Assembly: GCA_964610105.1 (NCBI GenBank)
Contig: CAZSUU010000011.1
Span: forward strand, 21,394 to 85,393
DNA: 64,000 nucleotides
Direction of reading: 5' to 3'
Source: an uncultured Verrucomicrobiota bacterium
GTDB taxonomy: Bacteria; Verrucomicrobiota; Kiritimatiellia; PWTM01
The position numbers and the translations under genes were made by a program. Position 1 is the stretch's first letter, and each line of letters opens with the position of its first letter. The notes under the pieces are model-generated. The model made no database searches. It worked only from the letters and a program-made list of their open reading frames with translations, and was not told the DNA's origin. Below are positions 15,077 to 64,000 of this stretch, piece by piece.

Positions 15077-15106
15077 GCGGCCATCCTAGCAGCCCGATCG
15101 CCAACT

Positions 15107-15192
15107 CTGAACACCGAACACCGAACACTGAACACTGAACACTGAACACTGAACACCGAACACTGAACACCGAACCCTGAACACCGAACCCC
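15107..15192. repeat. heptanucleotide tandem repeat (YGAACAC)x12
   Basis: ctgaaca/ccgaaca units repeated ~12 times, 31 bp upstream of the TauE start (minus) and ~150 bp upstream of the DUF1343 start (plus). Confidence 0.9.
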
Positions 15193-19693: not shown

Positions 19694-21004
19694 ATGAATC
19701 ATTCGACGCAGATACGGGCCGCCCGCGCGGGGGGGACCACCGCGGCCATGCGCGCGGTGGCAGCGGACGAGGGATGTCCGGCGGAGTGGGTGCGCGACGG
19801 CGTGGCCCGGGGTCGGATCGTGATCCCGGCGAACGTGCACCGCCGGAACGTGCGCGCGATCGGCATCGGGCGCGACCTGCGAACGAAGGTAAACGCCAAC
19901 ATCGGCAACTCCGCACTGGCCGGAACGCCCGGCGACGAGCTGGAGAAGCTCGACTGCGCGGTGCGGCACGGAACCGACACGGTGATGGACCTCAGCACCG
20001 GCCCGTGCGCCGACGAGATACGGAAGGCCATCCTGGAGCGCTGCCCGGTGCCCGTGGGGACGGTGCCGATCTACCAGGCCGCGGCGCAGGTCGCCGAGCC
20101 CTCCGCCCTCACGCTCGACCTGCTTCTGCAGGTCATCGTGACCCAGGCGGAACAGGGAGTGGACTACATGACCCTGCACGCCGGTCTCCGCCGGGAACAC
20201 CTCGGCGCCGTGCGCCGCCGGCTGGCCGGCATTGTCAGCCGGGGCGGCGCGCTGCTCGCCGCGTGGATGGCGCACCACGGCCGCGAGAATCCGCTCTTCG
20301 AACATTTCGGCGAGGTCCTGGCGATCTGCCGCGAGCACGATGTGACGATATCGCTGGGCGACGGTCTGCGGCCGGGGTGCCTGGCCGACGGATCGGACGA
20401 GGCGCAGATGGCGGAGCTGCACACGCTGGGGGACCTGGTCCGGCGCTGCCGCGAGGCGGGCGTGCAGGCGATGGTCGAGGGGCCGGGCCATCTGCCGCTG
20501 GACCAGATCGAACGGAACATGCGCGCCGAGGAGGAGGAATGCGACGGGGCGCCGTTCTACGTGCTCGGCCCCGTGGTCACGGACTGTGCGCCCGGATACG
20601 ATCATATCACCTCCGCCATCGGCGGCGCGTGGGCGGCCTTCCACGGCGCGGCGATGCTCTGCTACGTCACCCCCATGGAGCACCTCGGCCTGCCGCGCCT
20701 CAACGATGTGCGCGAAGGCGTCATCGCGGCGCGCATCGCCGCTCATGCCGCGGACGTCGCGCGGGGACGGCCCGGGGCGCGCCGGCGGGACGATGCGATG
20801 TCGGCGGCGCGGGCGCGGCTGGACTGGGAGGGGCAGTTCGATCTGGCGCTGGATCCCGAGCGCGCGCGGGAATGGCGGACGGCGGACGCGCCGAAGTGCG
20901 GGCGCGGGGAGACCGGGGCGGAACCCGCCGCCTGCACCATGTGCGGTCCCCAGTTCTGCCCCTTCCGCATCAGCGCGGCATTGAAGGATCCCGATCCGCG
21001 CTGA
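19694..21004 (+). CDS. thiC: phosphomethylpyrimidine synthase ThiC
   Basis: VNANIGNS, TVMDLSTG, DYMTLHAG, ISLGDGLRPG, MVEGPGH, FYVLGPVVTD, LCYVTPMEHLGLP, C-terminal CTMCGPQFC cluster. Confidence 0.9.
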   Translation: MNHSTQIRAARAGGTTAAMRAVAADEGCPAEWVRDGVARGRIVIPANVHRRNVRAIGIGRDLRTKVNANIGNSALAGTPGDELEKLDCAVRHGTDTVMDLSTGPCADEIRKAILERCPVPVGTVPIYQAAAQVAEPSALTLDLLLQVIVTQAEQGVDYMTLHAGLRREHLGAVRRRLAGIVSRGGALLAAWMAHHGRENPLFEHFGEVLAICREHDVTISLGDGLRPGCLADGSDEAQMAELHTLGDLVRRCREAGVQAMVEGPGHLPLDQIERNMRAEEEECDGAPFYVLGPVVTDCAPGYDHITSAIGGAWAAFHGAAMLCYVTPMEHLGLPRLNDVREGVIAARIAAHAADVARGRPGARRRDDAMSAARARLDWEGQFDLALDPERAREWRTADAPKCGRGETGAEPAACTMCGPQFCPFRISAALKDPDPR

Positions 21005-21157: not shown

Positions 21158-22240
21158 TCACGCGGCGCCGTCTGGAGAAGGCGGGCGGGATGGCGGAGGG
21201 CGGAGCAGGTTGCGGCGCGTGAGGAAACCGGCGATGACCTCGCCGCGCACGACGGGAAACACATACTGCTTCCGGCGCAGGATGTGGGGAAACATCTTCT
21301 CCGCGGGTGTCTCCGGCGCGACGCCGATCCATTCACGCACCAACTCGCCGCCCACCGTATCGGACGCGCGCCACCGCCGGGGCGGCCAGCGCCGGGCGCG
21401 CGGCCACAGGCCGATCATCCGATCGCCGTCGAACACCGGCAACTGCCCGCTGCGCCGGGCGCGCAGTTTCGCCGCCGCCTCGCGCGCGGGCTCGGACGGG
21501 GCCAGACGGGGCAGGTCCATCTCCAGCCATTCCTCGGCGAGGTGACCGCGCAGGCGGTGGAGGATGCGGATGCGCACGGCTTCCCAGCGGCCGGCGACGA
21601 TCAACAGGAGGGCCAGAAGCCCCATGAAGGGATTCGAAAGCCGGATGGCGAGCCCCACGAGTCCGACCGCCCCGGCGAAACCGAGCCAGGCGGCGATGGC
21701 CGTGGCCCGGGGGTAGGGCCACCGGATGGCCAGCAGGGCGCGGATCACACGGCCGCCATCCATCGGGAAGAAGGGGAGCAGGTTGAATCCGGCCAGTCCC
21801 AGGTTCGCCCAGGCGAGCATGTCCGCGAGCCAGCCGGCAGACGGGGAAGCGGTCGCCAGGATCTCCACTCCGGCGAATCCTCCCCGGCAGGCGGCGATCG
21901 CTCCGGCCAGTACGACGCTCGTGGCCGGACCGGCGAGGGCGATGAGGATTTCGTCGCGCGGCCGTTCGGGCAGGTGCGACATGAGGGCGACGCCTCCGAC
22001 CGGAAGCAGGGTGATCCCCCTCACCGTGATGCCGAACCGGCGGGCGACGAGGCTGTGCCCGATCTCGTGCAGCAGCACGCAGGCAAAGAAGACCAGGGTC
22101 AGCACGGCGGCGCCCATGCCCCAGGCGGTTCCTCCTTCGCGCCAGCCCTGCCAGAACGCCCAGGCCGGCACGAGCAGAAAGGCGGCGTGAAGGCGGATCT
22201 CGATGCCGGCCAGGCGGCCGACTCGCGCGGAGGTCTTCAT
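21158..22240 (-). CDS. M50 site-2 protease family zinc metalloprotease with C-terminal CBS pair
   Basis: HEIGHSLVA (HExxH in a TM helix), LDGG (FFPMDGGRV), CBS-like C-terminus; start MKTSARVG (residue 92 of ORF 21158..22513) overlaps upstream gene stop. Confidence 0.7.
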   Translation of the reverse strand: MKTSARVGRLAGIEIRLHAAFLLVPAWAFWQGWREGGTAWGMGAAVLTLVFFACVLLHEIGHSLVARRFGITVRGITLLPVGGVALMSHLPERPRDEILIALAGPATSVVLAGAIAACRGGFAGVEILATASPSAGWLADMLAWANLGLAGFNLLPFFPMDGGRVIRALLAIRWPYPRATAIAAWLGFAGAVGLVGLAIRLSNPFMGLLALLLIVAGRWEAVRIRILHRLRGHLAEEWLEMDLPRLAPSEPAREAAAKLRARRSGQLPVFDGDRMIGLWPRARRWPPRRWRASDTVGGELVREWIGVAPETPAEKMFPHILRRKQYVFPVVRGEVIAGFLTRRNLLRPPPSRPPSPDGAA

Positions 22241-45952: not shown

Positions 45953-46130
45953 AGATTGTTCCGCCGTAAGATGACACGCAAATGCGTATGATGTTTTGGG
46001 TTCGGGTTCTCGGTTGCGATGGGCGACGGAACAATCTACCTGTAAGGCGATGCTACGGAACGGAAGAACGGGCGGACAAGAGGCAACGCATCGAGCGGCC
46101 AGGGCCGTTGGGTTGCGGCTTGCCGCCTTA
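45953..46130 (-). repeat. copy C of the ~175-bp repeat family (reverse orientation, both hairpins retained)
   Basis: agattgttccgcc ... ggcgacggaacaatct arms, inner acgcaaatgcgt hairpin, ccgttgggttgcggcttgccgcctt = reverse complement of the 5' block. Confidence 0.75.
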
Positions 46131-46143
46131 GGCCGGAGTAAAC

Positions 46144-48945
46144 ATGAGCACAATTACGCGTTGGCTGATAACAGGCAGCATGGTGGCCTGTGCGACACGG
46201 GGCGATCTGCCCGCCTCGTACCGCGTCGCCTGGATGACGCCGTCGCAGGATTCGCTCGATTCCATGCCCCTATCCGGTCGCCGCGGCGCCGGGGCGAACG
46301 TCTGGGTGCAGGACGGATCGCTCTGGTTCTACCTGGCGCACAACGGCGCGTACGACGAACAGGGCCGACTGTTGAAACTCGGCTGCGTGCGCCTCACGCC
46401 AGTCGATTTCGCGCTCGGCGCCGACGGGTTCCGCCAGGAACTCGATCCGCACACCGGAACGATCCGCCTCGAACAGAACGGATTCAAGGCAACGCTCTGG
46501 TTTGCCGGCGAGACGCTGATCGTGGAGTCCATGTCGGATCCCGGCCGCGCGTTGGAGGTGTCGTTCGCCACCTGGCGGGACCGTGAACTCGAAAACGTCC
46601 GGGTCGACATGATGGGGGCCCGGGGCAGTTTCACGCCGGATCGCGTCCGCGCCGGCCCGGACGGCATCTCGTGGTTCCATCGCAACGCCGACGCGCCGGG
46701 GGATGTTGTCGGGATGGCGCGGGCACAGGGCATCCCGGCGGAAGCGGTCTACGATGTCACCAGTCGCCGGTTGTTCGGCGGCGCGCTGGCTGTTGACGGC
46801 GGCCTCTCCATGCCGACAGAAGCCGCGGTGCGGTGGCAGTTCTGGAACGGCAGGGCCTGGACAGGGCGCACCGCCGCCCGTACGTCGCACGTTCTCGCCA
46901 TCCGGCTCGGCGCGGGACTCGACGCGGACCCGGAGTCGTGGATCCGGGAGGCGAAGGCCCTCCTGCCGCCCGCCGCCCGGGAAGCCGCCCGCGCCGATGA
47001 ACTCGAGCGGTGGAACGAATTCTGGTCCCGCAGCCACATTTGGATTGCCGATTGCCGATTGCCGAATGCCGAATCCGGGCAAGACGGCGTCACAGAGACC
47101 GCGAGTTCAACAAATCGACAATCAACAATCGGCAATCGGGAATCCGATGTCTGGCTCATCGGCCGCAACTACGCGCTGTTCCGCTACATGCTGGCCTGCA
47201 ACCGGGACGGCGAGCTTCCGCTGCTCTTCAACGGCGGTATCTTCACCACCGACAACAACGGGCGGATCAAGGGCAACAACAACGACGAGCTTCCGACTTT
47301 CGAGGGGGAGCCGGTCACGCCCGATTTCCGCCGCTGGATGGGGTGTCGGTTTATGTCGCAGAACCAACGCTGGCTCGGCTGGCCGACGCTGGCGAACGGC
47401 GACGCCGACCTGCTTTGGCCATCGCTGAGGTTCTACCGCGACCGGTCCGTCACCGCCGCGGCGCGCGCGAAGATCCACGGGGCGGAGGGCGTGGTCTACC
47501 CCGAGCCGCTCGACGTGTGGGGGCTCTGCTGCGTCGCGCCCCGGCCCGACGGGCTGTGCGGGGCCGACCACCTGACCTACCACTTCTCCATGATGCTCGA
47601 ACACGCCTGGATGGCGCTGCAGGCGCGCGACGCGCTGGGCATTTCCCTGGCGAAGGACCTGGCATGGATCGAGGGAACGGTGCGGTTCTACGACAGCTTC
47701 TATCGCGCGCAGTGCAAACAGCGGACCGGGAGGGAACTCGGTGACGACGGCCGGCTCGTGCTCTACCCGACGTGCGGGCTGGAATTCGCGGGCGGCGCGA
47801 CGGACGCCATCGAAGTCGTCAGCGGATTGAGGCGCATCACGGCCGGGTTGCTGGCGCTGCCTGATCTGCCCGCGGCCTCGCGTGACCGCCTCCGCCGCAT
47901 CCAGGCCACGCTGCCCGAATTGCCCGTCGGAAACCGGCAGGGCCGGCGCTCGCTGCTTCCCGCAAGGAAATGGGAACGCGACTACAACAAGTGGGAGCCC
48001 ATCGAGATGTACGCCGCGTGGCCGTACCGGCTCGTCGGCATCACGCGGCCGGAGACCCTGCAACTCGCGCGGGACACGTGGGAGACGGTGCCCGGCGATC
48101 GCGCCCGCCTGTGCAAGCAGGACTTCTCGTGGATGGCGAACGTGGCGAACATGGCGGCACTGGCGTGGCCGGAGGAGGCGAAGAAGCGCGCGATCTGGAA
48201 GATGGCCAACACGGCGGCGCCGCAGGCCCGCTTCCCGGCGTTCTTCGGCCCCGGCCACGACTGGCTGCCCGACCACAACTGGGGCGGCAGCGGCATGACC
48301 GGCATCCAGGAAATGCTCCTCGCGCCGGAACCGGGACCGAACGGCAAGCTCAACCTGTTCCCCGCGTGGCCGGCGGATTGGGATGTCGATTTCAAATTGC
48401 ATGCGCCCGGGCCGACTGTCGTCGAAGCTGTGTTGCGCGGCGGGAAGCTGGAATCGCTGAAAGTCACGCCGGAATCACGGACAGCGGACCTTGTCAACTG
48501 GCTTGGCAAAGCGCCGCCCTACACGCCGTCGTCCCCTCCGCTGAGTCAGGGCAGGGTGGTCACGGTTTCCAGCCAGTTCGACCAGCCGGGCTACGATCCG
48601 GCGCGCGCGGTCGACGGCGATCTGAAGACGCGCTGGGCGTCCGACTTCCAGGCCCGTTCGGGATGGCTTGCCGTGGACCTCGGAGAGGAGCATGAAATCG
48701 GCCGCGTCTGGATCAGCGAGATCGAGTGGCCGGAGACGGAGGAGTTCGCGATCGAGGTGAAGCAGGACGGAGAATGGAAGCAAATCGCGCGCGGCACGAC
48801 CATCGGGGCGGACAAGTCCATCGAGTTGCCGCCCGTCCGCTCGCGTGAAATCCGGCTGAACGTCATCAAGGCCAAACGCCCCGTCAACATCAACGAATTC
48901 CAGGTTTTTTCGTCCGATAGAACGCCATCGGATGGATCGCCGTGA
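46144..48945 (+). CDS. GH95/DUF5703-like glycoside hydrolase, paralog 2, with C-terminal discoidin domain
   Basis: N-terminal TPSQDSLDSMPLSGRRGAGANVWV (GH95-like PLGNG-type motif), paralogous to 63048.. and 53651..; C-terminal F5/8 type C (DGDLKTRWASD...NEFQVFSS). Confidence 0.7.
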   Translation: MSTITRWLITGSMVACATRGDLPASYRVAWMTPSQDSLDSMPLSGRRGAGANVWVQDGSLWFYLAHNGAYDEQGRLLKLGCVRLTPVDFALGADGFRQELDPHTGTIRLEQNGFKATLWFAGETLIVESMSDPGRALEVSFATWRDRELENVRVDMMGARGSFTPDRVRAGPDGISWFHRNADAPGDVVGMARAQGIPAEAVYDVTSRRLFGGALAVDGGLSMPTEAAVRWQFWNGRAWTGRTAARTSHVLAIRLGAGLDADPESWIREAKALLPPAAREAARADELERWNEFWSRSHIWIADCRLPNAESGQDGVTETASSTNRQSTIGNRESDVWLIGRNYALFRYMLACNRDGELPLLFNGGIFTTDNNGRIKGNNNDELPTFEGEPVTPDFRRWMGCRFMSQNQRWLGWPTLANGDADLLWPSLRFYRDRSVTAAARAKIHGAEGVVYPEPLDVWGLCCVAPRPDGLCGADHLTYHFSMMLEHAWMALQARDALGISLAKDLAWIEGTVRFYDSFYRAQCKQRTGRELGDDGRLVLYPTCGLEFAGGATDAIEVVSGLRRITAGLLALPDLPAASRDRLRRIQATLPELPVGNRQGRRSLLPARKWERDYNKWEPIEMYAAWPYRLVGITRPETLQLARDTWETVPGDRARLCKQDFSWMANVANMAALAWPEEAKKRAIWKMANTAAPQARFPAFFGPGHDWLPDHNWGGSGMTGIQEMLLAPEPGPNGKLNLFPAWPADWDVDFKLHAPGPTVVEAVLRGGKLESLKVTPESRTADLVNWLGKAPPYTPSSPPLSQGRVVTVSSQFDQPGYDPARAVDGDLKTRWASDFQARSGWLAVDLGEEHEIGRVWISEIEWPETEEFAIEVKQDGEWKQIARGTTIGADKSIELPPVRSREIRLNVIKAKRPVNINEFQVFSSDRTPSDGSP
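47044..47147 (+). repeat. in-frame 104-bp palindromic element built from heptamer repeats (attgccg x3 ... cggcaat x2) inside the GH95-like CDS
   Basis: gattgccgattgccgattgccgaatgccgaatccg ... cgacaatcaacaatcggcaatcgggaatccg; encodes IADCRLPNAESGQDGVTETASSTNRQSTIGNRES, absent from paralog 63048.. (WNRSHIFVAKAGEGAYNL); locally low GC. Confidence 0.55.
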
Positions 48946-59270: not shown

Positions 59271-60917
59271 ATGAAAACAACGATTAAAGTCCTGATGTTC
59301 CTGGCCGTCCCGTTTGCGGGGCTGGCCGATGACGGCTACGGCCCGGTCGGCGCGCAGCACGCGCCTTCCTCCTACCGCGCGCCGGCGGATTTGGCGCCCG
59401 GCGGCTCGTTCATTGACCGCATCCTGCCGATGCCGGTTCCCAACGGCCTCCGCTCGGACGCCTGGGGCGGCAACAACGTGAAACCGCGCGTGGTGGAGAA
59501 TGGGCTTGAGGACCCTGCGTGGTCTTACTGGTGCATGAGTGTCCACCGGGAGGCCGACGGTCTTTATCACATGTTCGCCACACGCTGGTCGGAGGCCGAC
59601 CCACGCGGGCACAACGCCTGGCCGGACTCCCGCGTCGTCCATGCCACCTCCCCATCTCCCACCGGGCCGTTCACCGTCAAGCAGGAGGTCGGGCCCGGCC
59701 ACAACGTGATGTGTTACCGCGCCAAAGACGGAACCTATGTGCTTTATGTGATAGGCGGAGCTTACACCGCAAAGTCCGTGGACGGGCCATGGAACAAGTT
59801 CGATCTGAAATACGACCGCCGCGGAATGCCGGCGGTCGCGATGAGCAATCATTCATTCGCCATCCGCGAGGACGGCAGCGTCCTGATGGTGTCCCGCGCC
59901 GGTCACATCTGGATCAGCGAGGACGGCCTCAAGCCATTCCGCAAGATCACCACGAAGAGTCTCTATCCCCGGATTCCCGGCCGCTTCGAAGACCCGATCG
60001 TCTGGCGCGATGAAGTCCAATACCATCTCATCGTCAACGACTGGTATGGTCGCACCGCGTTCTACCTGCGCTCGCCCGATGGCGCAAACTGGACTTGGGA
60101 CGAGGGCAAAGCCTACGACATCGAAGTCGTCCGCCATCCGGACGGCGGCAAGGAAGGCTGGCACAAGCTCGAACGCCCCAATGTGCTCCAGGACAATCAC
60201 GGTCGCGCCACCCACCTGTACCTGGCGGCGATGGACGCGCCGAAGGACATAGACCGTGGTTCCGACGGCCACAGCTCGAAAGTCGTCGCCTTGCCGCTCG
60301 TGGTTGAGCGCCGGATGGAAATCCTGCCCGCCAACGCGGAGTCCGGCTCAAAGGTTCGCGTGAGAATCCTTGCCGAGCCGGGATTCGACCCCTCCGCACT
60401 CGACCCCGCGTCCCTGCGCTTCGGCCCGCCCGCCGAGGTGAACCGCAGCAAGGGATCCACGGCGGTAGGGGTAGTTGTTAGCGGCGGCAATCTCATCGTG
60501 ACCTTCGATTCCAAGGGCGGGGAGTCTGCTCCGACCGATCCGGTGGCGAAACTGCTCGGGAGAACCAAGCAGGGCGACCTCGTGCTCGGCTACGTGCGGA
60601 CCCCTGGCCATGCGGGACTCAAGGAGATTCTCTCGCCGCAGCCGCCCCGGATTACCGGTCCTGGCATGCTGGCGGTCACCGTGGAGAATTTCGGTCTGAG
60701 AATATCCGCTCCCACCACCGTGAAGATCTCGCTGCGCGGCGACGGAATTGCCCCGATCGTCCTCACCGCCCCGGCGCCCGCGCTCGAGCCCTATGCCGCC
60801 ACCGAGGTTTCCCTGGAGATTGATCCGAAACGTGTTTCCGGAAAACACCTCCAGGCCGAAACCACCGTCGGCCATCCGGATGCCGCATCATCGATCACCA
60901 GCGACTTGAGGTTCTAA
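59271..60917 (+). CDS. secreted beta-propeller glycoside hydrolase (GH43/GH117-like, tentative) with C-terminal beta-sandwich region
   Basis: Signal peptide; DPAWSYWCMSVHREADGLYHMFATRW propeller-blade-like motif. Confidence 0.5.
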   Translation: MKTTIKVLMFLAVPFAGLADDGYGPVGAQHAPSSYRAPADLAPGGSFIDRILPMPVPNGLRSDAWGGNNVKPRVVENGLEDPAWSYWCMSVHREADGLYHMFATRWSEADPRGHNAWPDSRVVHATSPSPTGPFTVKQEVGPGHNVMCYRAKDGTYVLYVIGGAYTAKSVDGPWNKFDLKYDRRGMPAVAMSNHSFAIREDGSVLMVSRAGHIWISEDGLKPFRKITTKSLYPRIPGRFEDPIVWRDEVQYHLIVNDWYGRTAFYLRSPDGANWTWDEGKAYDIEVVRHPDGGKEGWHKLERPNVLQDNHGRATHLYLAAMDAPKDIDRGSDGHSSKVVALPLVVERRMEILPANAESGSKVRVRILAEPGFDPSALDPASLRFGPPAEVNRSKGSTAVGVVVSGGNLIVTFDSKGGESAPTDPVAKLLGRTKQGDLVLGYVRTPGHAGLKEILSPQPPRITGPGMLAVTVENFGLRISAPTTVKISLRGDGIAPIVLTAPAPALEPYAATEVSLEIDPKRVSGKHLQAETTVGHPDAASSITSDLRF

Positions 60918-60938
60918 CCGATTGCCGATTTTCAATTT

Positions 60939-62996
60939 GTGAACCAAACACTGCGAACGGCCCTGGTCCTTGCCGCCGCGCTTTTCGGCCGGGCCGCCGA
61001 AGAGCTCGGGCCGCAACCACCCGTGGCCATCGGCCGGGGCTACTACGCCATCCTGCCCGGCAAGCTGCTGCTCGCCAGTCAGCTCCATCCGGAGTGGCGG
61101 GAAGCCACCCTCGAATGGACCAAGCTGAGCGGTCCCGGAGACGTGGTGATCGAGCGCCCCGCCGCCGCCGTCAGCTGGGCGGTAGCGGACAAACCGGGCA
61201 AGTACGTCTTCCAACTGAAGACCACCCGCGCCGGCGGGGAACCGTTCACCGGGACAGCGCAGGTCAACGTCTATCCGGCCGGCGACTACCTCGGGAACCC
61301 GATCCTGCCGGGCATGTTCCCCGATCCCCACGTGTTGTTCGACGAGGGACGGTTCTACATCTACGCCACGTCGATGGAGAACGACGCCGGTTCCTACGGC
61401 CGGGCTTCGGTGTGGATGTCGGACGACTTCGTCAACTGGGAGATGAAGCTCAGCAACTGGCCCGAGTACGGCAAGTTCGGCGGCGACATCTGGGCGCCCG
61501 ACATCATCCGCAAGGGCGACAGGTACTACCAGTTCATCACGCGCTCCGGCGGCTACGACACGTGGGGCGCCGTGGCGGACTCGCCGGTCGGCCCGTGGAA
61601 GAACCTGCGCGAGGACAACACCGCGATCGTCAGCGGCGGCGGCAACGCCGGCCGCATCGTCGCTGCCTACAACATGGACGCTCAGCCGTTCATCGACGAC
61701 GACGGACAGGCCTACATGTACTGGGGCTGGTCCGAAGCCATGGCTGCCAGGCTCACGCCGGACCTGAAGAACATCGACGGCGACGTGCACTTCCTCAAGG
61801 GCACCAAGTGGCTGCCCGACGGCGGCTCGCTGCCCCAGTGGCTAAGCGTGGACCTCGGCGAATCGATGCCCGTCACCAGGGTCGTTTCCTCGCCCGAGTT
61901 CAAGCACGTCGCGTACGGCTACAAGATCGAAGTCTCCGGGGACGGAGAGGACTGGATTCTCCTTGCCGATCGCACGGCCAACCGCACCGCGCTGCCCGGC
62001 GAGGGTTACGTCGATGAAGGGCGGGCGACGGGCCGGCACGTGCGCATCACGTTCAACCACTGCGGCGGCCACTGGGCCGGCCTCTACAACTTCGCCGTCT
62101 ATTCCGGCGACCAACTGGTGTCGCTCCACAAGTCCGCCACCGCCTCCTCGGTCCGCGGCAAGGGCTCGGAACCGCAAAACGCCGTGGACGTCTCCAACGG
62201 CCCGCACCTCGCCGACTTCGTCGAGGGTTCCTACATGATCAAGCACAACGGGAAGTACTACCTGCTCTATTCCTCCGGCGTGCTGCACGACGGCACCTAT
62301 TCGGTGCGCTACGGCATGGCCGATCACCCGTTCGGACCTTTCACAACGCCGACGAACCATGTGATCCTCCAAATGAACGAGGAGCAGACCACCCGCGGTC
62401 CGGGTCACAACTCGGTGCTCAGATTCGGCGGGAAACACTACATCGTTTATCACCAGCACAACCAGCCGCACGAGGGGGGCGCACTGGTCTTCCGGCAGAC
62501 GTGCGCGGACCGGATGGAGTTCAACCCGGACGGCACGATCAAGCCGGTGGTTCCCACGCAGACCGGCGTCGGCCCGCTGCGGCCCGCGCCCCCGCCGCGC
62601 GAGGACTTCGCCCGCGGTTGCTACGCCACCGCCACCAGCGTGAAAGGCGGTTACCACGTGCCGGAGTATGCGCTCGACCACAACAACGCCAGTTTGTGGC
62701 GCGCCGCGGACAACGCCTACCCGCAGTCTTTCACCGTCGATCTCGGTGAGGTCCGCGCGTTCTCGCTGATCGAAACCACCTTCGAATACCCCACGCTGTC
62801 ATACGAATATCTCATCGAGGTTTCCGAAGACGGCGAGCACTGGAAAACGCACACCGACAAGCAGGCCGATTTCCCGGTGGCCGTCAGCCCGCACAAAGAC
62901 GCCGGCCAGGCGCGCGCCCGTTTCGTGCGCATCACCATCACCGCCTGCCAGCGTCCGGAGAACGGCGCGGGGCTTTATTCATTCGAGGTTTACTGA
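60939..62996 (+). CDS. GH43 family glycoside hydrolase with two F5/8 type C (discoidin) domains
   Basis: NPILPGMFPDPHVLFDEGRFYIYATS (GH43 catalytic Asp region), YWGWSE; discoidin-like segments (LPQWLSVDLGE..., NASLWRAADN...YSFEVY). Confidence 0.8.
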   Translation: MNQTLRTALVLAAALFGRAAEELGPQPPVAIGRGYYAILPGKLLLASQLHPEWREATLEWTKLSGPGDVVIERPAAAVSWAVADKPGKYVFQLKTTRAGGEPFTGTAQVNVYPAGDYLGNPILPGMFPDPHVLFDEGRFYIYATSMENDAGSYGRASVWMSDDFVNWEMKLSNWPEYGKFGGDIWAPDIIRKGDRYYQFITRSGGYDTWGAVADSPVGPWKNLREDNTAIVSGGGNAGRIVAAYNMDAQPFIDDDGQAYMYWGWSEAMAARLTPDLKNIDGDVHFLKGTKWLPDGGSLPQWLSVDLGESMPVTRVVSSPEFKHVAYGYKIEVSGDGEDWILLADRTANRTALPGEGYVDEGRATGRHVRITFNHCGGHWAGLYNFAVYSGDQLVSLHKSATASSVRGKGSEPQNAVDVSNGPHLADFVEGSYMIKHNGKYYLLYSSGVLHDGTYSVRYGMADHPFGPFTTPTNHVILQMNEEQTTRGPGHNSVLRFGGKHYIVYHQHNQPHEGGALVFRQTCADRMEFNPDGTIKPVVPTQTGVGPLRPAPPPREDFARGCYATATSVKGGYHVPEYALDHNNASLWRAADNAYPQSFTVDLGEVRAFSLIETTFEYPTLSYEYLIEVSEDGEHWKTHTDKQADFPVAVSPHKDAGQARARFVRITITACQRPENGAGLYSFEVY

Positions 62997-63047: not shown

Positions 63048-64000
63048 ATGAAACACGCCGGCAACCCTATCAACCGCCACAGAGTCTTTCTCCTCGCTCT
63101 TTCAATCGGCATCGCTACTCCGGGCTTGGCGTCAGGCGCGGCGGGGGAGGCTCCGATCGCCGCCTCCCTCGATGACTGCAACGTCGTTTGGAACACTCCG
63201 AGCCAGGATTCCTTCGGATCGATGCCGCTGGGCAACGGCGACATCGGGATCAATGTCTGGGTCGAACCGAATGGCGATCTGCTCTTCTACATCGCCAAGG
63301 TGGATGCCTACGACGCCAACCACCTGCTGCCCAAGCTTGGCCGAGTCCGCCTGCGCGCCGAGCCGGCGCTCGACACCGCGGCGTTCAAGATGTCCCTGCG
63401 GCTCCGCGAGGCCGCGGTCGACGTCGAGGCCGGCGACGCCTCGCTCCGCGTGTGGGTCGATGCCAATGCGCCGGTGATCCGCGTCCAGGGCCGCAGCCGG
63501 ACCCCGCGCCGCTTCACGCTGACGGCCGAATCGCTTCGCGCCTGGAAGAACGCGGCCGACCCCCTGCCGGATTCGGGAACGGTCGCGCTGTTGTTCCACG
63601 ACGCGTCCGACACGCTGGCCTGGTGCTACCGGAACCAATCGTCCGCCTGGGCCGCGCGGTTCGCCAACCAGAACACGCCGGAGATGGTGTCCGCCTTCCG
63701 GGATCCCATCCTCCACCGCACGTCGGGCTGCACGCTCCGGGCCAAGGGCTTCAAGCGCGCCTCGCCTTCCTCGATCGCGACGCCGCAACCGGTCGGCGAC
63801 ATCGACGCCACCGTGCGGATCCTGACCGGCCAGCCGCCGAGCCCCGAGGCGTGGAGACAGGAGGCGCTCGGACCCGTCAGATGGGACTGGAAAGCACACC
63901 TGGCCTACTGGAAGTCGTTCTGGAACCGCAGTCACATCTTCGTCGCCAAGGCCGGCGAAGGCGCCTACAACCTCGATCCCTACCGCTTCACCCAGTTTCC
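63048..64000 (+). CDS. GH95/DUF5703-like glycoside hydrolase, paralog 4 (3' end beyond window)
   Basis: Signal peptide MKHAGNPINRHRVFLLALSIGIATPGLASG; NTPSQDSFGSMPLGNGDIGINVWV closely parallels paralog 2. Confidence 0.7.
   Translation, partial: MKHAGNPINRHRVFLLALSIGIATPGLASGAAGEAPIAASLDDCNVVWNTPSQDSFGSMPLGNGDIGINVWVEPNGDLLFYIAKVDAYDANHLLPKLGRVRLRAEPALDTAAFKMSLRLREAAVDVEAGDASLRVWVDANAPVIRVQGRSRTPRRFTLTAESLRAWKNAADPLPDSGTVALLFHDASDTLAWCYRNQSSAWAARFANQNTPEMVSAFRDPILHRTSGCTLRAKGFKRASPSSIATPQPVGDIDATVRILTGQPPSPEAWRQEALGPVRWDWKAHLAYWKSFWNRSHIFVAKAGEGAYNLDPYRFTQF

Follow-up and report, generated by a model that had tools for sequence, protein, structure and literature searches.

A hairpin of inverted heptamer arrays carried in frame by a verrucomicrobial DUF5703 gene, and its likely kinship with gene-less array hairpins elsewhere

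How does a palindrome built from tandem heptamers come to lie, in frame, within a gene for a large protein? The question is raised by a 64,000-nt stretch of DNA (the window: positions 21,394 to 85,393 of contig CAZSUU010000011.1, assembly GCA_964610105.1) from an uncultured Verrucomicrobiota bacterium of the Kiritimatiellia, in which a gene for a 933-aa protein carries such a palindrome. The answer that we favour, and hold to be somewhat better than an even bet, is that the palindrome represents, as a tolerated copy without a gene, a class of heptamer-array hairpins that is widespread, and the second arm of which would have been added to a site that already held a one-sided array. The parts of the locus are as follows, in window coordinates:

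46144..48945, + strand: host gene, encoding a 933-aa protein with DUF5703_N and F5/8-type-C (CBM32-like) domains (from open reading frame, translation and Pfam)
47036..47039, + strand: flank ACAT, pairing with ATGT at 47147-47150 in the predicted DNA and RNA structures
47043..47072, + strand: left arm, (GATTGCC)x3, GAATGCC, GA, encoding (W)IADCRLPNAE
47073..47112, + strand: core of ~40-42 nt, unique sequence, encoding SGQDGVTETASST
47113..47144, + strand: right arm, inverted and degenerate, AATCGAC AATCAAC AATCGGC AATCGGG AATC, encoding NRQSTIGNRE

Read directly, the left repeat run is GATTGCC GATTGCC GATTGCC GAATGCC GAATCC and the right run AAATCGA CAATCAA CAATCGG CAATCGG GAATCC, which gives an imperfect palindrome at 47043-47144 with the layout (GATTGCC)x4.3, a 42-nt core and (NNCAATC)x4.6. 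A repeat search placed inverted-repeat arms of 31 nt each, 84% complementary and 42 nt apart, at 47042-47072 and 47115-47145, and Tandem Repeats Finder returned a period-7 array on either side (left, 47043-47072, 4.3 copies, 95% matches; right, 47113-47144, 4.6 copies, 84% matches). The limits of the element, ~47042/47043 to 47144/47145, are at most 3 nt from those given in an earlier sequence-only reading of this DNA, and that reading's account of a palindromic heptamer-repeat element with locally lowered GC, in frame over 33-34 codons, was borne out: the element is translated in frame as IADCRLPNAESGQDGVTETASSTNRQSTIGNRES (34 codons), its GC is 0.54 vs 0.67 in the remainder of the host gene, its GC at third codon positions (GC3) is 0.50 vs 0.86, and no other window of the same size in the host gene has a GC3 below 0.65. 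The secondary structure that it proposed to check is also predicted, with 47035-47155 folding at -29.1 kcal/mol as DNA (z -4.5) and at -48.8 kcal/mol as RNA (z -4.7), in each case with 0 of 200 shuffles as good, and with the stem prolonged past the arrays by the flank pairing of ACAT with ATGT. The right-flank codons GAT GTC (D-V) are unusual, relatives having GAC GCC or GAG GCC. All five matches in the window to CAATCNNCAATCNNCAATC (CAATCNN x3, with at most 2 mismatches) fall in the element, vs 0.07 expected. Neither GATTGCC nor its complement holds a stop codon in any of the six frames, and such an array can therefore be read through and tolerated in coding sequence.

Is the element real? 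The identical 933-aa protein is encoded on 15 independent contigs from several runs, which rules out an assembly artefact, and the three of these contigs that were read (L212-L214) have 0 nt differences over the whole gene, so the element is both real and stable. These three contigs also start within ~12 nt of one another, 41-53 nt upstream of the start codon (window ~46090-46103), which suggests a repeat or strain-variable junction just upstream of the host gene.

Which state of the site is the older one? The host protein has 578 homologues, mostly of 900-915 aa, in the Verrucomicrobiota, Planctomycetota, Lentisphaerota, Kiritimatiellota and Bacteroidota (the closest match among GTDB species representatives is 77%), and in 56 of ~70 orthologous loci the site is a loop of 18 codons, whereas the window has 43, i.e. 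25 more residues. That most orthologues have the 18-codon loop marks the window element as a derived insertion. The sequence-only reading had argued for an indel from the absence of the segment in the closest paralogue, at 63048; this gene, a remote member of the family, is truncated where the window stops, so it was dropped as proof, and it is the orthologues that demonstrate the indel. The native loop has the pattern I-x-I-N-P-x-A-x-x-D-D-P-G-W-L-I-G-R and its DNA opens with ATC AAT CCN, which already holds one repeat unit. Of the 56 native loops, 16 have an exact CAATC within their first 15 nt, vs one per 1,227 nt elsewhere in these genes, an enrichment which argues that arrays arise at native codons that are similar to the repeat unit to begin with. 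One-sided heptamer arrays occupy this very site in many orthologues, where they appear in the protein alignment as QSxIxNxQS-type peptides, and no comparable array was found elsewhere in any of these orthologue genes:

Locus L002: perfect (CAATCCG)x4, without left arm and without core; protein 96.4% identical to that of the window outside the loop, DNA 94.4%
Loci L003 and L004: (CAATCGG)x4 at the site, and also in a paralogue at the equivalent site
Loci L014, L015, L026, L034, L022 and L030: CAATCNN arrays of 2-5 units at the site
Locus L054: (TCACTCC)x11 at the site
Locus L033: (CAACAAC)x4 at the site
47047..47113 of the window, + strand: 66-nt segment of left arm and core, the sole indel here relative to L002; its placement is ambiguous owing to the repeats

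In the pairwise DNA alignment of the window with L002 there is a single 66-nt gap, at gene columns 905-970, which corresponds to the left arm plus the core. The protein with the perfect one-sided (CAATCCG)x4 in this comparison, P0001, is 96.4% identical to the query, and what is left of the array ranks with the 45-nt windows of the gene that have diverged most. Taken together, the right arm of the window and its flank (TNRQSTIGNRESDVW) can be aligned, codon by codon, with the arrays of L003 (INRQSEIGNRNSDAW) and L002 (IDPQSAIRNPQSEAW), which are one-sided. A full palindrome is found among the orthologues only in the window and in L001 (~77% identical); the two palindromes have identical total length, near-identical left arms and diverged cores, which retain only weak similarity, with shifts. 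The same difference of 22 codons is seen when L001, with its 43-codon loop, is set beside P0024 and P0028, the relatives nearest to it (82%), which have a 21-codon one-sided loop. In a rough neighbour-joining tree the array state is scattered at no fewer than 15 positions among native sisters.

Could all of this be purely local mutation? Slippage would have amplified the native CAATCCN, a template-switch fold-back would have made the inverted copy, and correction of the quasi-palindrome would have kept the arms complementary. Much at the locus agrees with this: the native site supplies the repeat unit, the arrays can resemble local sequence variants (TCACTCC in L054, CAACAAC in L033), loop lengths of 23 vs 16 codons differ by exactly 3 units, concerted CGG/CCG switches separate close relatives, and the pairing runs on into the flanks. 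Also, heptamers are described as the most abundant long simple repeats in many genomes, with polymerase slippage as the proposed cause (Mrazek 2007, as cited in PMC4692102 and PMC4679880). The core does not fit, however, for by BLAST and folding it is neither an inverted copy of the adjoining sequence nor internally symmetric, and the 66-nt increment has been repeated in two separate clades. With the points on dispersal and on gene association that follow, we regard a wholly local origin as unlikely, if still a serious contender.

Is the architecture found elsewhere? It recurs, between genes, in an Akkermansiaceae metagenome-assembled genome (L008 21719-21819), and the generic palindromic pattern is present at nine loci of viral contigs, with 2-3 copies per contig. 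Among the matches listed, the left-arm (GATTGCC)n sequence marks more than 120 stretches of metagenome DNA; an inverted partner of the CAATC type lies within 160 nt of 46 of the 126 arrays, one-sided arrays thus outnumbering palindromes by 80 to 46, the cores of the paired arrays (7-101 nt) are unrelated to one another, the two arms of a pair often differ in heptamer variant and unit number, and a good many of the arrays adjoin a start codon. On several contigs, both metagenomic and viral, 2-4 palindromes stand no more than a few kb apart, and their cores differ in length and sequence. That the same arms and architecture stand at hundreds of unrelated loci, often several to a contig, is difficult to reconcile with local mutation. 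Arrays are also found in frame with Pfam domains on either side, in polyketide synthase, UvrA, DnaG, MMPL transporter and PSCyt protein genes, and the peptides that the heptamer dictates in the window insert recur in unrelated proteins. A second full palindrome lies in frame in the Fer4_20 domain of a GltD-like Fe-S flavoprotein gene (L167). Stop-to-stop frames through arrays overcount such cases in GC-rich DNA; the candidate in-frame palindromes of L139 and L199 were rejected as Arg-rich antisense frames, and L162 probably represents a 5' leader ahead of a gene of prepilin type.

The DnaG cases form a clade (L202 6262-6282, L216, L215 and L217; proteins P0121-P0240) with an insert of 11-43 residues inside DNAG_N that ends in a (CAATCGG)n or (CAATCCG)n array with n = 4, read as QSAIGNRQSAI or QSAIRNPQSAI. 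Decayed versions of the insert are present in relatives, and the base form of 603 aa reads KEETGNYYDRF. Heptamer arrays can therefore persist in frame in an essential gene. One very AT-rich viral contig (L087, GC 0.21) has at 473-570 a perfect (GGGGATT)x6 / (AATCCCC)x8 palindrome with a 4-nt centre, its heptamer being the one described for Nostoc (PMC4692102).

Are these hairpins, then, transposable elements of the miniature inverted-repeat kind (MITEs), as the sequence-only reading proposed by likening the element to Rickettsia palindromic elements (RPEs) and Correia-like repeats? As a classical non-autonomous transposon it would have been mobilised in trans by a transposase and would have inserted in frame by chance. 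A good part of the comparison stood: the element is palindromic, of low GC, in frame and missing from most orthologues, its 104 nt without an open reading frame (ORF) of its own and its terminal inverted repeats are what is expected of a MITE, and the same architecture is dispersed elsewhere, with several copies per contig and, on one viral contig, two copies (L083 and L090) whose flanks differ while arms and core are nearly identical. In-frame MITEs, the RPEs among them, are likewise palindromic, ~100-150 nt long and in frame in unrelated genes (review PMC10969869), and likewise add a peptide at places compatible with the protein fold; the in-frame palindrome of L167 is a further resemblance in outcome. 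But there is no target-site duplication, the flanks CACATTTG and CGATGTCTG holding no direct repeat and being partly complementary instead. The core has no similarity within the rest of the window or ~2.18 Mb of fetched DNA, and BLAST of the window, L001 and L008 cores against all fetched DNA gave chance 12-14-mers only and no core family, even copies on one contig differing; an opening GGGCAAGA common to the window and L167 cores may be chance. The arms, too, are tandem arrays that vary in unit number and heptamer variant between sides, one-sided arrays predominate among the matches listed, the right arm is orthologous to arrays resident at the site, and no transposase was seen beside any copy examined, the genes of the window having been screened in part. 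RPEs, by contrast, are Rickettsia sequence families with a conserved consensus and conserved peptides, while here only the 7-nt periodic arms are common to the copies; the organism has no relation to Rickettsia, the host gene has a GC of 67%, the core is unique and the peptide is dictated by the heptamer, which by description sets the element apart. Lacking a target-site duplication and a conserved core, and with variable tandem arrays for arms, the element belongs neither to the RPE or Correia families nor to the classical MITEs, and we consider the transposon explanation improbable.

A different association emerged from the longer array pairs. At two metagenome loci (L171 and L178) inverted GATTGCC arrays flank an ORF of ~350 nt that scores as both PF05635 (23S rRNA intervening-sequence protein) and TIGR02436 (four-helix-bundle protein), and of nine such ORFs in the fetched DNA most have flanking inverted arrays. 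The array-bracketed genes lie at:

L171 649-1088, L178 3571-4009 and L184 379-859: PF05635/TIGR02436 genes bracketed by arrays
L202 9558-9950 and L188 3630-4028: the same, with arms of the unrelated heptamers GGAAAGC/GCTTTCC and GTAAACC/GGTTTAC respectively, which had no role in the choice of these loci
L218-L234, e.g. L230 24705-25132: plasmid cassettes

The plasmid loci come from an unbiased test, a protein search against PLSDB plasmids that gave 28 records, mostly cyanobacterial but also from Chlorohelix, Bernardetia and Treponema, of which 12 were fetched. Inverted period-7 arrays bracket 10 of these 12 genes, in a sample that spans four phyla; at the remaining two the arrays are direct (L221) or complex (L223). 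The heptamer varies between copies, the arrays often reach as far as the start and stop codons of the four-helix-bundle gene, the inverted repeats can be perfect (36 nt in Nostoc pC052_A, 31 nt in Dolichospermum pAfl69), and two Nostoc plasmid copies have arms of the GATTG/CAATC type. As a control, five 50-kb stretches of the same plasmids (~220 genes) were scanned for period-7 arrays: there are 1-11 per stretch, they are located at the four-helix-bundle gene in 5/5, and in pC052_A the sole inverted pair in 50 kb brackets that gene exactly. In the 2.4 Mb of DNA that was fetched, the spacing of paired inverted arrays is bimodal, with a short, gene-less class of 47 pairs (gap <120 nt) and a long class of 10 pairs (gap 300-600 nt), 7 of which enclose a four-helix-bundle ORF; conversely, all 14 non-duplicate four-helix-bundle ORFs have an array at one or both ends. 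Such array-bracketed genes span at least five phyla, and their cassettes are squeezed in among genes of unrelated kinds, in many cases within defence operons. So strong a tie between inverted arrays and one gene family would not be expected from random slippage.

Three further observations concern arrays near these and other genes. In Dolichospermum pAfl69 (L231 22263-28649) seven (TTACGAA)n arrays lie in frame in three neighbouring annotated genes, for a helicase-related protein, a hypothetical protein and a DNA methyltransferase, where they encode NYELRITNYELRIT peptides (NYELRIT repeats); TTACGAA is the arm heptamer of the adjacent four-helix-bundle cassette, and it looks as if the cassette's repeat had spread locally into the flanking genes. 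At the orthologous loci L171, L178, L194 and L208, from four metagenomes, a 5-unit GATTGCC array fills most of the ~60-nt gap between a divergent gene and the four-helix-bundle gene, with the unit number conserved across the four samples. Many other arrays are within ~10 nt of start codons, as are TAACTGA repeats.

What in the literature resembles this? The heptameric simple sequence repeats of Xanthomonas, (GGGAATC)n, number ~185 arrays per genome with a mode of 4 units, 70-75 convergent inverted pairs and no function found; 89-93% are intergenic and 7-11% intragenic, and Nostoc has a related GGGGA(T/C)T heptamer (Rehm et al. 2015, PMC4692102). With these the window element shares tandem 7-nt units, ~4 per array, in two close convergent arrays, as well as, for the class, dispersal mostly between genes near gene ends, with an intragenic minority and with length and sequence varying among close relatives; GGGAATC is one base from the GGCAATC seen here. 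The conserved part here, however, is CAATC, so that no G-quadruplex is possible; the setting is another phylum, with a GC-rich host and soil and freshwater metagenomes besides; the window element is wholly inside coding sequence and in frame; and the paper reports no link to four-helix-bundle genes (PMC4692102). The TAACTGA arrays of Beggiatoaceae, Cyanobacteria and Bacteroidetes lie just upstream of starts and occasionally inside ORFs (MacGregor 2015, PMC4679880). Like GATTGCC, these and the short tandemly repeated repetitive (STRR) sequences of cyanobacteria are dispersed tandem heptamers near starts, with 7-residue periodic peptides where they enter ORFs and a patchy phylogeny, but TAACTGA has stops in all forward frames and forms an inverted pair in 1 of 170 sets, whereas GATTGCC is open in six frames and often paired.

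The closest match to the longer cassettes is the intervening sequence (IVS) of rRNA genes. That of Coxiella burnetii 23S rRNA is a 428-nt selfish element with a 28-bp terminal inverted-repeat stem cut by RNase III, and besides an ORF of the PF05635 family it carries GACAGAT heptamers in tandem, in a number that differs from strain to strain (Warrier et al. 2016, PMC4990558). PF05635 ORFs are found also in 16S and 23S rRNA insertions of bacteria of the candidate phyla radiation (bioRxiv 2024.02.27.582315), and PF05635 resembles Avd of the diversity-generating retroelements (PMC10053308). An IVS and the window element have in common terminal inverted repeats that form a long stem, tandem heptamers and a host molecule that tolerates the extension. 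In the IVS the heptamers stand at the 5' side in variable copy number, and larger IVS carry the PF05635 (S23p, four-helix-bundle) ORF, an architecture shared by the array-flanked cassettes here; the origin and mobility of IVS are unexplained. But an IVS lies within helix 25 or 45 of the rRNA, from which RNase III removes it, whereas the window element is in a protein-coding gene and is translated, and its 42-nt core encloses no PF05635/TIGR02436 ORF, which makes it at best a gene-less counterpart of an IVS-type cassette. Our literature searches, made in an incomplete library, found no papers on array-flanked four-helix-bundle genes outside rRNA or on such genes tied to dispersed heptamers; nor did they find any on the repeat strings, the QSAIRNPQSAI peptide or heptanucleotide repeats in Verrucomicrobia or Planctomycetes.

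How might these observations be joined? The window element consists of two short tandem arrays (GATTGNN / NNCAATC), inverted around a short unique core; inverted heptamer arrays of this kind are a class widespread in bacteria, and in the DNA examined they come in two sizes, gene-less hairpins of ~70-150 nt and cassettes of ~400-450 nt, most of which enclose a PF05635/TIGR02436 gene. Short hairpins and gene-carrying cassettes would then be one element family, the hairpins perhaps derived from the cassettes, with the arrays made by slippage, by template switching or by a process that the element encodes. At the window locus the first step would have been the rise of a one-sided CAATCNN array at the native Ile-Asn-Pro codons (ATC AAT CCN), which, like others at the site, would be altered rapidly through homogenisation and slippage. 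Then one event of 66 nt would have added the inverted array and the core on the 5' side, either by template switching at the array or by ectopic conversion or insertion from another hairpin copy. A bolder extension is possible, and we advance it tentatively: that inverted heptamer arrays are the ends of small, widespread, unrecognised selfish cassettes whose usual cargo is an Avd-like four-helix-bundle gene, that the ORF-bearing rRNA IVS is the special case of a cassette landed in rRNA, that gene-less hairpins, including the in-frame copies in enzymes and even in the essential genes dnaG and uvrA, are non-autonomous derivatives, and that the STRR, GGGAATC and GATTGCC arrays are footprints or by-products.

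Several points weigh against the reading that we favour. The 64-kb window holds neither a second GATTG-type hairpin nor a four-helix-bundle (PF05635/TIGR02436) gene, and no sequence remnant, in the ~2.18 Mb compared, ties the window core to a four-helix-bundle gene. Two palindromes of the same length in ~77%-identical lineages, each beside one-sided relatives, are awkward for a one-off local event. The tree is rough, and gene conversion between paralogues could mimic recurrent gain. In DnaG the 'seed', GGAAAT, is weak because much of the match is owed to an Asn codon. It was for their arrays that the metagenome loci had been chosen, a bias from which L202, L188 and the plasmid sample alone are free, and in 3 of the 10 cassettes of ~400 nt the contents are a prepilin-like gene, an unknown ORF or no gene.

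Does the insert do anything for its host? The host protein comprises a DUF5703_N domain (PF18961, 5e-36), a central helical part and an F5/8-type-C domain (PF00754, 1e-13), so that the 'GH95-like' label of the sequence-only reading was loose, a true GH95 gene being elsewhere in the cluster. Solved DUF5703 homologues are in the PDB (9hyq, 9hmb), and a literature search on the family gave no paper despite these structures. In an AlphaFold (AF2) model residues 296-342 have a pLDDT of ~30 and no secondary structure, between helices 276-296 and 335-352; the model is moderate (mean pLDDT 62.9) and was used only for this loop, together with the alignment to 9hyq, which carries its own unrelated insertion of ~25 charged residues at the same loop. 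Together these place the insert in a predicted disordered, length-variable loop linking the N-terminal beta-sandwich domain and the helical catalytic domain. A selected feature could take the form of a contingency (phase-variable) repeat, an mRNA hairpin for expression or processing, or a useful extra enzyme loop: slipping heptamer arrays change frame, the RNA hairpin is very stable at the free energy given above, such stems are RNase III substrates in rRNA IVS (PMC4990558), and the insert is kept in frame and identical in three independent contigs. Yet the unit number is constant in the three contigs read of the 15 carrying the protein, the arrays are degenerate as well as short, the prediction for the peptide is disorder, with its sequence dictated by the repeat, the same peptides occur in unrelated proteins, and close relatives manage without the insert. 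Scans of the element found no promoter or terminator signal, and an intrinsic terminator is ruled out because no T-run follows the stem; an Rfam scan of 46800-47400 at E<=1 gave only a meaningless plant microRNA match (20.8 bits vs a gathering score of 197). A selected function is thus the least probable of the explanations considered, and we rate it very low. Most likely the insert, 25 extra residues in a loop of 43 vs 18 codons, is a tolerated passenger without a role in the enzyme.

The rest of the window adds little of the same kind. Its heptamer arrays are the in-gene hairpin, an unrelated (AACACTG)x12 array and one doubtful mini-array, with no more in the 64 kb:

60920..60935, + strand: possible 2-unit mini-array GATTGCC GATTTTC, weak and statistically like chance

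The recurrence of the heptamer after the gene at 60917, reported by the sequence-only reading, comes down to these 2 units and degenerate sequence at 60920: without the element's own 6, two loose heptamer matches are left in the window, as against a chance expectation of 1.1. The mini-array lies in a 21-nt intergenic gap, 4 nt before a GTG start at 60939, a placement by a start codon that resembles many metagenome arrays. The second array, at 15103-15189, is (AACACTG/AACACCG)x12.4, and AACACTG arrays or near-arrays occur at other verrucomicrobial loci (L068 20305-20349, L022 ~2390-2410). In L068, directly after (AGTGTTC)x6, there is at 20350-20495 a palindrome of ~12-nt units, (TCGATCATTGTC)n then (GACAATGATTGC)n, which shows that hairpins of tandem repeats are not confined to a period of 7.

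The neighbours of the host gene are GH106, GH29-like, GH2, GH95, GH78 and GH43 genes. They belong to a long same-strand glycoside-hydrolase (GH) cluster at 41385-62996, with GH106, DUF5703, GH29-like, GH2, GH95 and GH78 members, an unassigned 548-aa protein and a GH43+CBM32 gene, which is probably a locus degrading rhamnose- and fucose-rich polysaccharide; the second, more distant DUF5703 paralogue follows at 63048-64000.

We conclude that for the host gene alone the consequence is modest, the insert being a tolerated passenger, and that what distinguishes it from published heptamer pairs is another heptamer, another lineage and a position fully in frame. Dispersed heptamers (STRRs, Xanthomonas GGGAATC, Beggiatoaceae TAACTGA) have been noted for decades, and to our knowledge neither they nor the rRNA intervening sequences with their S23p ORF have a known mechanism or function. 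Followed outward, this locus connects the dispersed heptamer repeats, the rRNA IVS and the S23p ORF family, and the link, if true, defines a tractable element for testing how heptamer arrays are made. Hairpins and arrays carried in frame in proteins, the primase and UvrA among them, are a source of disordered loop insertions, and they can confuse gene and protein annotation through peptides such as QSAIGNR and IADCRLP. If, in addition, the arrays are the ends of selfish cassettes, there would be a single testable cause for the excess of heptamers in bacteria and for the origin of intervening sequences.

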